Shown here: piece after piece, positions 13,944 to 16,900 of the stretch
Numbering within the stretch: position 1 is the stretch's first letter
Layout of the letters: the number at the start of each line of letters is the position of its first letter
Source: Escherichia coli
Lineage (GTDB): Bacteria > Pseudomonadota > Gammaproteobacteria > Enterobacterales > Enterobacteriaceae
NCBI RefSeq assembly: GCF_003790525.1
Contig: NZ_CP033635.1
Length of the DNA: 64,000 nt
Strand: one strand, 5' to 3'
Program-made: the position numbers

Positions 13944-16900
13944 TAATTACACTGTGGGTTGACGCCGGAAGAATCAGAGAACAGATACCGTTCTTACTGT
14001 AAAACGTGGCTAATATTAATTGAGCACTGCAGTGTTCAGAGCACAAAGAAGAAAAAAGATGTGTGCGAATGCCTGTAATGTGTTAAAAGAATGTTCCGCG
14101 TTTCCGGTACGCTTTTCGTAACTAACAATGCAGGGTGACGTAACGCTGGTTGTGCCGGAAACGCGTCCCTCCCCCTATCTTTCCTGTTTGGATTTGCCCC
14201 TATATTTCTGGATTATCCGACAAAACCGGCGTGAAGTATTACTCTCGTCGCCCAGCACCATAAGGATAACGCCCATAAAATCATGAAACTTTTCTTCCAG
14301 ATTGGATACAATCAGGCCGTATCCCGTATTACAGGCTTATCACGTGTGACAGTCAGTCTCTGGGTGTGTTCAGGAACATTCCCTGAAATGTCAACCCGGC
14401 CTCCAGAGCGAGGACTTCTGGCCCCATGGAGGGAGTGGTTAAAAGAGCAACGAGAAAGTGGTAACTTCGGCGCGTGGCTGCAAGGATGGCAGCTGATGCT
14501 GCGGCTATATGTGAGGCAATCAGCAGTCGCTGGAATAATGGGGGTTGTCGAAAGTCATGTAAATAGACTAAAAATGCTGAAAGGCCAGATGTATGGTCGA
14601 GCCGGATTTGAACTACTCAGACAGAGGGTCATGAGTCCACTGGCATGAAAATCTCCATCCAGGTTGCGTAAGAGCCACTTTTCATCCGTCGTCGATATCT
14701 GGGATAGCCATAGTGAAATAAAAAGCTGTCTGAATTAAATTATTTTGCACATATATTTTAATCCTGCACTGAATTAAGAATGGGTAATCAGTGACCGCTT
14801 GGACGGTCACTTTTAAGAGAAGGCATTAACAGAGAATGGTAAACAGGCTCAATATATTATGTTGTTGGCACTACAGATGAATGATGGGATGATATTTTCC
14901 AATCCTTTCCATCCCACTCATAAGCGAAACTATAGCGTGCTGAAACTTGTTTTTTATCTTCAAAAGTAAACGTGTAATTCCCTGTATCAAGAGCCATATT
15001 GCATCCAATGCGAATAGTTCTGAAGTTTATTTCTCCAACAGGTTTTTTTTTCAAAAAATGCTCAAAATAGTCAACTCTTTCTGCATCTGTAATCCTAATT
15101 TTTTTTGATACTGTGGGCAGTAAGATCGCATCACTTAAATAGTTATCAGCAACCTTCTTGGCATCACCTGTTTTTAATGATTCATTCCAGCGATCGAATA
15201 ACCTTTCAATGTCTTTACTATCTACCCGAATACACTTAACATTATCTACGTCACTTGCCCACGACGCTCCAGAAAACAGACACAGAATTAAAATATTTAT
15301 TTTTTTCATAACTCCTCCTGATCAGCCTGAAACTTTTTTAAAGTTTAATCATATTAATACAGTGCAACTATTTGATAGTAAAAACGATGTTCTCTATTTT
15401 GTTAATAGATACTTCCTATTGTGTATATATTATGAGATTATTAAGAATAATACTCTCTGGGTCGTAGAGACAGGGTATAAGTCACAGGCTGGTGTGGTTC
15501 GGATGTTCTTGCCCCCTCAATATCAGACTGCTATTGTATCTTAAGTTAACGTTATCCGCTGACGTCGATATTCCCGTGGTGAGAGATAACCTAACGCACT
15601 ATGCGGATGGTTTTCATTGTAATGCTCGAACGCCTCTGCAAGGTTATGCAATGCCGTTATTACATTCAGTTTCGGCATGAACGCGATGTAGTCTTCATTC
15701 ACGTTTTCACGAACCTTTCTGCCATTCTATTGCTCTGAGGGCTACTGACTGCCGTCGTGCAGGGCTCCAGATTCAACTCTCTGGCGAATTGCCGTGTTTC
15801 ATGAGCCGTATAAGCCGAACCGTTATCCGTCCGCCACTGGATTGCTCGTTCCGGTCCTTTATCGCCAAAGCGTTTTTCTATCGCTCCTAACATCACATCC
15901 TGCACTGTCGGCTTTATCGTAACCTCCCGTACTGGTCACGGGCAGACTGTTCATCATGTTAAACCCAGCCGCTGTCAGATCATGCACCGGCCGGATGGCG
16001 GGCTGACCTGCCCCGCCGCGCTGCTGCCCGCCAATCCATTTCTTACCTTCCTTCCCGGTGGCCTGACGTCCGGCCTCGTCCCCTTTCACCGCATCACCGT
16101 CACCGCTGTTCACCACCTTCTTGTACTCTTCCAGCATCGCTGGCCTGCGTCCATTTGCTGCGATCAGAAAAGTCCATCATCCGTTTTGCCATGTTCTGGC
16201 AGTTCAGTTACGCCTTGTCGAAAGCCACATTCGCCTGCAGCACACCGTTGGTGATCATGTCGTACAGGCCGGGGTTGGCACGCTGTATCACCATCGCCGG
16301 CAGACTGGCAGCGGCGCCGGTCGCCCCCTAAATCACATCCCCCATCAGATTTTTAAAGCCGTCGGTCAATCCGTTAAGATGATTACCCACCGTGGTCTTC
16401 AGGTCAAAGTTGCCGCACATCAGATCGCTGCTCCAGCCCAGGTCCATACCCAGCTTCTGCATGTTGCTGCGCGTGGCCAACTGTGAGATCACCGAGCCGC
16501 CACCCAGCGTATAGAACAGTTTGTCGGATACGGCGCCATCCACGGATTTCCCGTAACCGAACGTGCTGTCATTCAGTTTCGGCAGGGAAAGAAGATCAGC
16601 CATCGCCGGAATACTGCAGTACAGCATCACACTCAGTGCCACCATACCTGTTTTCATCTTCATCATCATGGTTCCTTAAAAATTCGTACTGCCAAGGAAT
16701 CGCTGCCCGCGCTTTTCGAAGCAGCTGTAAGGCTGCCACAGTGCAAAGGCTGCATTACCGTTCTCCGCCGCCTGGTGTTCACCATCCGGGAAAACGGCAC
16801 AGGAACGCGACACTGACGGCGTCAGTCGCTGCCATTTGTGATTGCGGGTGCCGGTGTTTTCCTCCACCGCCTCCGGGGGCCAGTAGCCGTCACGTTTCAC

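Follow-up and report, generated by a model that had tools for sequence, protein, structure and literature searches.

A probable iota-class carbonic anhydrase gene among insertion-sequence remnants in an Escherichia coli genomic island

Described iota-class enzymes and the gene under study

The iota-class carbonic anhydrases (iota-CAs) comprise two sub-types. Common to both are a C-terminal motif, His-His-Ser-Ser, and a pocket formed by Thr, Tyr, His and Ser; the motif consensus was given as HHHSS by Del Prete 2020 (PMC7191908) and as His-His-Ser-Ser by Hirakawa 2021 (PMC8132391). In the Anabaena enzyme all2909, the substitutions T106A, Y124A, H197A and S199A each abolish activity, and in the Bigelowiella natans enzyme exchange of the Thr or the Tyr leaves no activity, whereas exchange of the His or the Ser lowers it 4-fold and 8-fold, respectively (PMC8132391). 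The equivalent residues of the COG4875-type diatom enzyme from T. pseudonana are Thr62, Tyr77, His139 and Ser141 (PMC8395977). The present analysis concerns a gene for a protein of 150 amino acids (aa), annotated as an 'SgcJ/EcaC family oxidoreductase', which lies in a stretch of 64,000 nucleotides of the Escherichia coli contig NZ_CP033635.1 (assembly GCF_003790525.1). This whole stretch is called the window below. The protein is probably an active iota-CA.

The nearest relative of known structure is 3H51, the Xanthomonas campestris protein NP_636218.1, a 'putative CaMKII association domain' called XcaCA, which the literature counts as an 'apparent iota-CA' whose pocket contains a putative bicarbonate (PMC8425729, PMC8132391). 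It differs from the 150-aa protein in having NHHSS instead of SHHSS, in lacking both cysteines of the latter (LDDDS versus GCN, and no Cys in the N-terminal arm), and in that its bicarbonate ligand is only 'putative'. BteCA-iota of Burkholderia territorii has been characterised biochemically: it has 162 aa with a 25-residue signal peptide, a kcat of 3.0e5 s-1 and a reported dependence on Zn (PMC7191908). Like the 150-aa protein, it consists of a single CaMKII-AD of roughly 150-160 aa with a Sec signal and a C-terminal (H)HHSS, and it bears the same misleading annotation; identity to 3H51 is 42-51% for BteCA-iota and 47% for the 150-aa protein. BteCA-iota has the full HHHSS, whereas the 150-aa protein has SHHSS and is an iota-CA by prediction from sequence. 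The metal-free COG4337 enzymes all2909 (7C5V) and Bn86287 (7C5X/7C5Y) (PMC8132391) share 24-25% identity with the 150-aa protein, contain an extra insertion and belong to a different COG/Pfam family. The 150-aa protein falls in the COG4875/CaMKII_AD branch, where metal independence is not established.

According to the CA literature, bacterial iota-CAs carry 'SgcJ/EcaC family oxidoreductase' as their default annotation. An E. coli iota-CA under this annotation was mentioned in 2020 in one line as 'unpublished data' (PMC7321114), a mention that may refer to the window gene or to a plasmid-borne, Citrobacter-type paralogue; beyond it, a literature search gave no published characterisation of an E. 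coli iota-CA. Both the protein class and the annotation pitfall are already known, and the 150-aa gene is a further member in an unremarkable setting.

Family placement, putative active site and predicted role

An earlier note, made from the sequence of the window alone, described two convergent open reading frames (ORFs) of 121 and 150 aa at this locus, and both occur with exactly those coordinates and lengths (Table 1). The 150-aa ORF lies in a patch of 31-36% GC, where long ORFs are rare, and it goes far beyond chance. It is a real gene, annotated as an intact coding sequence (CDS) in RefSeq E. coli genomes, and its product has 323 homologues of about 150 aa. The protein matches Pfam CaMKII_AD as a single domain (5e-13, 49.7 bits; cut-off 22.1), SnoaL_3 (1e-7, 32.5 bits; cut-off 22) and DUF4440 (2e-5, 25.2 bits; cut-off 25.2), as well as NCBIfam TIGR02246 (4.6e-11, 42.8 bits; cut-off 33.95). 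The NTF2/SnoaL-like pattern perceived earlier is therefore confirmed by CaMKII_AD and SnoaL_3 matches above their cut-offs. As a 'subfamily' model, TIGR02246 covers NTF2-like proteins broadly, and the SgcJ/EcaC name has no tested function behind it for this branch. Most homologues (P0002-P0120) also have a weak precomputed match to a new Pfam family, PF27546 'MICAH'.

In a single-sequence search 3H51 was the sole solved structure recovered (1e-30), and a family profile matched it at 1.7e-40, with 46.8% identity over 124 residues. The second profile match was the B. natans iota-CA 7C5X/7C5Y (1.8e-11), limited to the C-terminal ~50 residues of each repeat, and the remaining matches were noise (ketosteroid isomerase, E 0.83). 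A fold search, which the earlier note had proposed as a check, likewise returned NTF2-like proteins with 3H51 first: the structural comparison gave 17.7 for 3H51 (46% identity), 14.3 for the Anabaena iota-CA 7C5V (24%), 14.3 for SgcJ 4I4K (13%) and 13.9 for the B. natans iota-CA 7C5X (25%), and all other matches were lower (4-18%). If the annotated name were taken literally, the protein would be an SgcJ/EcaC-type oxidoreductase or a tailoring enzyme of secondary metabolism. SgcJ does appear among the structural matches, but at 13% identity, and neither the single-sequence nor the family-profile search found it even at E<=1. Moreover, no biosynthetic cluster surrounds the gene in any genome examined, the protein is predicted to be exported, and the label is the one that bacterial iota-CAs receive by default. 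This is the least probable of the readings considered here.

The residues that matter for catalysis in iota-CAs have clear counterparts in the 150-aa protein. Its C-terminal stretch reads S141-H142-H143-S144-S145 and so contains the four-residue HHSS, with H143 and S145 as equivalents of the catalytic His and Ser. Among 35 homologues H142, S144 and S145 are invariant and H143 is at least 90% conserved; T66 and Y81, the equivalents of the catalytic Thr and Tyr, are invariant in the same set. The spacings from T to Y (15), Y to H (62) and H to S (2) are those of Thr62, Tyr77, His139 and Ser141 in domain 1 of the T. pseudonana iota-CA (PMC8395977), and the pattern PT[VLMI]S...DYF...H[HQ]SS is kept in 119 of 120 database homologues. 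The four residues were mapped by sequence spacing and by alignment to 3H51. These observations suggest that the protein is an active iota-class carbonic anhydrase of the COG4875, CaMKII-AD type, converting CO2 to bicarbonate, an assignment to which we give a probability of about 0.65. The earlier verdict that its function is unknown is thus too pessimistic.

The N-terminus has the form of a Sec-type signal peptide, as the earlier note had perceived: MKK is followed by a hydrophobic core and SWA|SD, and Ala18 at position -1 is invariant in 35 homologues. This judgement was made by eye and with a crude rule applied to the sequence, by which 109 of 120 homologues have a basic and hydrophobic N-terminus; some databases name homologues 'signal peptide protein'. 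The protein is predicted to be exported via Sec and cleaved after Ala18. Two cysteines, C26 and C103, are invariant in the 35 homologues, kept in 117 of 120 and absent from 3H51, which suggests a DsbA-made disulfide tying the N-terminal arm to the sheet. Proteomics of Dickeya solani lends separate support to this: a 'CaMKII-AD, SgcJ/EcaC family oxidoreductase' with two Cys and a predicted extracytoplasmic location was lowered to 0.32-fold in a dsbA mutant (p = 0.0001; PMC8775594, Table 1).

In the mechanism that we propose, the protein would be exported through Sec with loss of the 18-residue signal peptide, would probably form the C26-C103 disulfide and fold as an NTF2-like cone, and would probably dimerise via its beta-sheet, as do 3H51 and other iota-CA domains (PMC8395977). 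T66, Y81, H143 and S145 would make up the hydrophilic half of the pocket inside the cone, and this pocket would deprotonate water and hydrate CO2 to bicarbonate and a proton, as in characterised iota-CAs. Any benefit to the host would be that of a periplasmic carbonic anhydrase, namely retention of CO2 in the form of bicarbonate or buffering of the periplasm, roles that have been suggested for periplasmic alpha-CAs.

Several points weigh against this assignment. The five-residue HHHSS form is absent, its first His being Ser in the 150-aa protein and Asn in 3H51, and because of this Ser the protein has no three-histidine metal site of the kind once proposed for BteCA-iota. Assays exist for only two COG4875-type proteins, whose need for a metal is disputed. 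The link from the 150-aa protein to an assayed enzyme is transitive, running via 3H51 and the published residue spacing, and NTF2-like folds are functionally promiscuous; a residual doubt on CA activity persists because such pockets are versatile and neither this clade nor 3H51 has been assayed. The D. solani protein could not be confirmed as an orthologue or as a member of the same clade. The gene is also dispensable in some lineages: in SMS-3-5, an IS1 cuts it to its first ~66 codons (L017 5671-6199), leaving what is annotated as a 74-aa hypothetical protein, and in LH10-b-1 (hit H36) an IS1A lies within the 864-bp segment. A consensus scan found no sigma-70 promoter on the - strand and no terminator for the gene. 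The intergenic DNA upstream measures 450-950 bp in homologues versus ~190 bp in the window, and the native regulatory region is therefore probably truncated. When the upstream regions of eight homologues were aligned, some Enterobacterales shared an AT-rich block, and nothing convincing was kept in the window; an A/G-rich block at the position of the Shine-Dalgarno-like sequence is also present in the homologue alignment. Because of the truncated upstream region and the lack of a promoter or terminator consensus, expression of the gene in E. coli is unproven.

The versatility of the fold leaves room for a periplasmic NTF2-like protein with another job, one that binds or transforms a small organic or anionic molecule, CO2 hydration being a side activity of distant relatives. 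Isomerases, dehydratases, epoxide hydrolases, binders and scaffolds all belong to the superfamily, and all were among the fold matches; the Enterobacterales clade has 48 invariant columns, including C26, C103, R78 and D80, which are not shared with 3H51 and hint at clade-specific constraints; and in Pseudomonas lundensis the homologue follows katB-ankB, an oxidative-stress and not a carbon context. However, the four positions at which mutation impairs iota-CAs are all kept at identical spacing, the nearest functionally labelled sequence relatives are iota-CAs, and the variable, partner-less gene context fits a housekeeping-type enzyme with a ubiquitous substrate. We regard this alternative as a real but minor possibility.

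E. coli K-12 is not known to have a periplasmic CA. The carbonic anhydrases known in E. coli are Can and CynT (beta class) and a gamma-class enzyme (PMC7321114), and in the CA literature beta- and gamma-class enzymes are cytoplasmic. If the 150-aa protein is an active iota-CA, it would be the sole periplasmic CA known in the species, and about 1% of complete genomes would have it, together with iha, on a decayed island. In other pathogens periplasmic CAs have a bearing on bicarbonate-dependent signalling, on the buffering of pH and on how CO2 is retained, and CAs are under study as targets for antibacterials. Work on CA inhibitors in E. coli that assumes only beta and gamma classes would then have to reckon with an accessory, possibly metal-independent CA. 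The name 'SgcJ/EcaC family oxidoreductase' hides this more specific and testable function.

Table 1. Features of the locus, with coordinates in the window
Feature	Coordinates	Strand	Remarks
IS3-family (IS911-like) remnant	13164..14035	+	left boundary; right end approximate
121-aa ORF	14283..14648	+	convergent with the 150-aa gene, 208 bp between them
ISL3-family IS remnant	14320..14691	+	partial helix-turn-helix, ~130-codon deletion, ~15-codon out-of-frame stretch, C-terminal tail, ISL3-type end
ISL3-type end GGCTCTTACGC	14666-14676	-	after the stop codon; putative inverted repeat
Filler segment	14698..14850	.	153 bp of separate origin, between the ISL3 remnant and the 150-aa gene
150-aa gene (CaMKII-AD/NTF2-like protein, predicted exported)	14857..15309	-	intact; RefSeq WP_029400372.1, 'SgcJ/EcaC family oxidoreductase'
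His-His-Ser-Ser motif	14875..14886	-	codons 142-145; H143 and S145 equivalent to catalytic His and Ser
T66 (LLPTVS) to Y81 (DYFEHF)	15067..15114	-	codons 66-81; equivalents of catalytic Thr and Tyr
Predicted Sec-type signal peptide MKKINILILCLFSGASWA	15256..15309	-	codons 1-18; predicted cleavage after SWA, then SD
Shine-Dalgarno-like AGGAGGAG	15312..15319	-	2 nt before the ATG of the 150-aa gene
AT-rich upstream region of the 150-aa gene	15310..15497	-	32% GC; ended by the IS2-like fragment; right boundary approximate
IS2-like (IS3 family) transposase C-terminal pseudogene fragment	15541..15933	-	right boundary of the low-GC patch

Distribution, mobility and gene context

A sensitive blastn search found the 150-aa CDS in 51 of 5,426 complete E. 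coli genomes (~1%), at least 99% identical and, in 50 of them, full-length. These carriers hold it at 52 places, all chromosomal and none on plasmids, and a 1.8-kb mosaic around it is conserved as a block in 50 genomes. The exact protein occurs on about 1,000 contigs, always named 'SgcJ/EcaC family oxidoreductase' or 'DUF4440', and among the matches listed most carriers were isolated from poultry or humans. Such a distribution points to one acquisition event and to a gene that is open to loss. Outside E. coli the nearest relatives (Enterobacter, Providencia and metagenomic contigs) are only 67-71% identical.

A Citrobacter-type paralogue, WP_003833285.1, also has 150 aa; it is 66.7% identical, matches TIGR02246 at 1.6e-10 and carries the same annotation. 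Both genes are single hitch-hiking genes moved by insertion-sequence (IS) activity, but the paralogue resides on plasmids in linkage with a resistance gene, whereas the window gene is confined to chromosomes and has a different origin of lower GC. On pJIE137, an IncN plasmid of K. pneumoniae, WP_003833285.1 adjoins qnrB2 downstream of ISCR1 in a complex class 1 integron (L019 4956-5408). A probable iota-carbonic anhydrase, as judged from its sequence, thus hitch-hikes with a quinolone-resistance gene. A tblastn search with the 150-aa family matched 494 PLSDB plasmids, including 137 from Klebsiella, 130 from Ralstonia, 62 from Rhizobium, 56 from Enterobacter, 52 from Pantoea and 13 from Escherichia. 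Many resistance plasmids carry a related copy alongside qnrB2, so that the CA literature underrates both the mobility of the family and its frequency in clinical isolates.

The neighbours of homologues were inspected in eight contexts outside E. coli. In Enterobacter and Pantoea a convergent gene of ~200 aa encodes a Crp-like protein with a C-terminal winged helix-turn-helix (HTH_46, 5e-6, below cut-off; L002 6750-7355 (-), L005 6669-7265 (-)). As a general convergent partner this Crp-like gene had to be discarded, being absent from the window (tblastn best E 1.1), Yersinia, Buttiauxella, Pseudomonas and the two metagenomic contexts. In P. lundensis the homologue lies 60 bp downstream of catalase and ankyrin-repeat genes and in the same direction (L009 3772-6447, L010 430-3105), and it looks like the third gene of a katB-ankB-type oxidative-stress operon; a literature check on the P. 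aeruginosa counterpart of this lead (PA4611) found nothing. Yersinia, Buttiauxella, P. gingeri and two metagenomic contigs have unrelated neighbours. In none of the eight contexts did an ISL3 fragment, a toxin, a secretion system or a biosynthetic cluster stand beside the homologue. Such a partner-less, variable context fits an enzyme with a ubiquitous substrate, and it speaks against an immunity protein or a pathway-tailoring enzyme.

The clade of Enterobacterales, Pseudomonas and Acinetobacter with the predicted disulfide might act in vivo not as a CA but as a periplasmic NTF2-like enzyme or binder for some other small anion or a reactive species, which we consider unlikely. Hints of a role in stress come from the katB-ankB linkage in P. 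lundensis and from the Crp-like neighbour seen in Enterobacter and Pantoea. If this reading held, the repeated mobilisation of the family (in the window island, in qnrB2-ISCR1 integrons and on 494 plasmids) would reflect selection for a non-CA activity.

The earlier note had remarked that exported NTF2-like proteins in islands are sometimes immunity proteins or small-molecule binders. A role in immunity, or as a secreted factor associated with the virulence of the island, would suit a pathogenicity-island-like region with iha and other horizontally acquired genes, the predicted export, and the patchy occurrence among E. coli (51 of 5,426), with carriers mostly from poultry and humans among the matches listed. 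No toxin or secretion-system gene is adjacent, however, in the window or in the eight other contexts, and in E. coli only IS debris flanks the gene. Homologues are chromosomal single genes with 60-71% identity, spread over many non-pathogenic Enterobacterales and Pseudomonas, whereas immunity genes evolve fast. An immunity or virulence function is accordingly very improbable, and a small-molecule binder is not the favoured reading either; the sequence points instead to an iota-carbonic anhydrase.

Insertion-sequence debris and the 121-aa ORF

The 121-aa ORF is almost certainly a non-functional transposase remnant and not a gene. Its residues 26-117 align to positions 275-368 of the 370 in NCBIfam transpos_ISL3 (NF033550) at 4e-9; the DDE core is not matched, and the score of 36 bits falls far under the cut-off of 180 because only the tail of the profile is present. 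RefSeq annotation by PGAP treats window 14319-14648 as a transposase pseudogene, 'frameshifted; incomplete; missing N-terminus'. Compared with ISL3-family transposases (NF033550, PF01610), the ORF keeps about a quarter of the protein, its tail NGVVE.HVNRLKMLK.QMYGRAGFELLRQRV aligning to the last ~90 profile positions; the DDE catalytic core is missing, an internal stretch has been deleted and part of what remains is out of frame. The earlier note had given neither ORF an IS assignment, which holds for the 150-aa gene and fails for this one.

A search of 5.8 billion proteins returned 111 relatives of the 121-aa ORF, all of them fragments of at most 211 aa, many named 'transposase, partial' or carrying PF01610 (DDE_Tnp_ISL3). 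None of the 111 is an intact copy of the ISL3-type IS behind the ORF, and full-length matches to the ORF are solely near-identical E. coli copies. The ancestral order read from the relatives is ...REISRITGLSRVTVSRWVRSGTFPE...ESGNYNAS - ~130 aa - MEADAAAICEAISSRWSNGVVEGHVNRLKML..., and the ancestral protein reconstructed from them runs ...HNKGCSFREISRITGLSRVTVSRWVRSGTFPEMSTRPPKRGLLDPWREWLKEQRESGNYNAS - ~130 residues - MEADAAAICEAISSRWSNGVVEGHVNRLKMLKRQMYGRAGFELLRQRVMSPLA. When related fragments are stitched together, the composite reaches 219 bits with transpos_ISL3, passing the cut-off of 180, and matches DDE_Tnp_ISL3 at 7e-28. The fragments used for it (P0129, P0139, P0164 and P0210) are relatives of window 14320-14648. 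The composite has an insertion of ~135 residues inside its DDE domain, which matches the N-terminal helix-turn-helix (HTH) region of IS21 transposase (3.5e-16). This ISL3-type IS seems to persist only as fragments, which the 111 matches place across E. coli, Salmonella, Klebsiella and Vibrio.

Measured against this ancestor, the 121-aa ORF consists of four pieces. The first retains only the distal part of the HTH, SRITGLSRVTVSLWVCSGTFPE, and the helix and a half before it are replaced by the unrelated junction codons MKLFFQIGYNQAV. Next, ~130 ancestral residues are deleted. The third piece, LRLYVRQSAVAGIM, is taken to be the DNA of ancestral EADAAAICEAISSRWSN read in another frame, a comparison made by eye on the protein sequences; the relative P0125 carries the same out-of-frame reading, MLRLYVRPSAVAGVM. 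In the last piece the true C-terminal tail noted above is back in frame. On pAPEC-O2-ColV the block 14320-14691 is 97% identical and ungapped, and the sequence upstream of 14320 differs. Because the IS-derived block starts at 14320, the ATG at 14283 comes from junction DNA; the start codon and the first 12 codons lie outside the block, and no Shine-Dalgarno sequence was seen upstream of this ATG. The ORF is embedded in IS debris of ~50% GC, where a few kb of sequence contain spurious ORFs of 113-141 aa on either strand, and it is not in excess of chance. That it reads through intact is accidental, the outcome of a deletion and two changes of frame within a transposase pseudogene. The ORF would have arisen from an ISL3 transposase gene by N-terminal truncation at 14319/14320, the loss of ~130 codons and two frame changes that by accident left no stop codon, with an ATG supplied by the junction. 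Of the two ORFs thought to be intact, only the 150-aa gene is so.

The earlier note had also seen an HTH-like segment in this ORF. Such a stretch does exist at about residues 11-36, with weak matches to HTH_23, AlpA and HTH_17, but the best of these reach E values of only 0.05-0.1 and 13-14 bits against cut-offs of 21-27, and no complete HTH is present. The weak matches are echoes of the truncated internal HTH of the ISL3-family transposase and do not mark an independent regulator. One might still imagine a small HTH regulator domesticated from a transposase and perhaps acting on the neighbouring gene: no stop interrupts the 121 codons, the recognition-helix segment is still recognisable, and the deletion derivative is 97% identical on ColV plasmids, with tblastn matches on hundreds of plasmids. 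This is highly unlikely, since junction sequence stands in place of the first helix and half of the second, some 15 codons are in the wrong frame relative to the ancestor, and all HTH family matches are below threshold. The start, which has no ribosome-binding site, lies outside the conserved block, and its region is missing from the plasmid copy; PGAP calls the ORF a pseudogene, and elsewhere it is never a neighbour of a 150-aa homologue.

The two ORFs do not form a pair. The ISL3 remnant is found on ColV plasmids without the NTF2-like gene, homologues of that gene occur in eight taxa without the ISL3 remnant, and the co-occurrence of the two in other genomes, a check that the earlier note had suggested, is limited to one nearly identical E. 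coli DNA block. Half of the reported pair is thus IS debris, and the false 'HTH protein' should be dropped.

On either side the locus is bounded by the remnants that the earlier note had recognised as IS911-like and IS2. The left flank matches NCBIfam transpos_IS3 (E 2e-14); a PGAP transposase pseudogene at window 13164-13867 lies inside this remnant, and window 13899-14035 is 86-91% identical to IS3-family transposase genes of other genomes. The right flank matches NCBIfam IS2 TnpB (3.9e-24 and 1.9e-19) at profile positions 172-289 of 301, and its PGAP name is 'integrase core domain-containing protein', frameshifted and missing the N-terminus. Both remnants are pseudogenes in the RefSeq annotation of the identical E. 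coli locus. Between them follow, in order, the ISL3 remnant (to 14691), the filler, the 150-aa gene and ~190 bp of upstream DNA, with a strong putative ribosome-binding site (AGGAGGAG), that runs to the IS2-like fragment. The cargo thus amounts to hardly anything beyond the gene. The filler shows 92% identity to intergenic DNA in about 75 other E. coli genomes without the 150-aa gene, where its counterpart is flanked by a sigma-like HTH gene and a yaiO-like gene. Within the filler there is a stable hairpin at 14790-14811 (-13.8 kcal/mol on the + strand and -14.4 on the -; z -2.6 and -4.2), which was rejected as the terminator of the 150-aa gene: it belongs to a segment of separate origin, and its short T-run is confined to the + strand. 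A search for a composite transposon enclosing the 150-aa gene gave only short repeats at chance level.

The region is best explained as a patchwork of IS debris in a decayed genomic island, with one working cargo gene. Between them, three further stretches of the island (window 10542-12521 (-), 16676-18042 and 20237-22324 (-)) contain an intact PhoX-family phosphatase gene, the siderophore receptor/adhesin gene iha and internally stopped remnants of integrating-conjugative-element genes (TIGR03756/TIGR03757). The surroundings look like a decayed pathogenicity island derived from such an element. A 20-mer, TGGATTTGCCCCTATATTTC, occurs three times in the window with at most 3 mismatches, at 2328-2347 (-), 14189-14208 (+) and 59782-59801 (+), where the chance expectation is 0; we take it to be similar to an IS2-type terminal inverted repeat, and its copies may mark further orphan IS ends.

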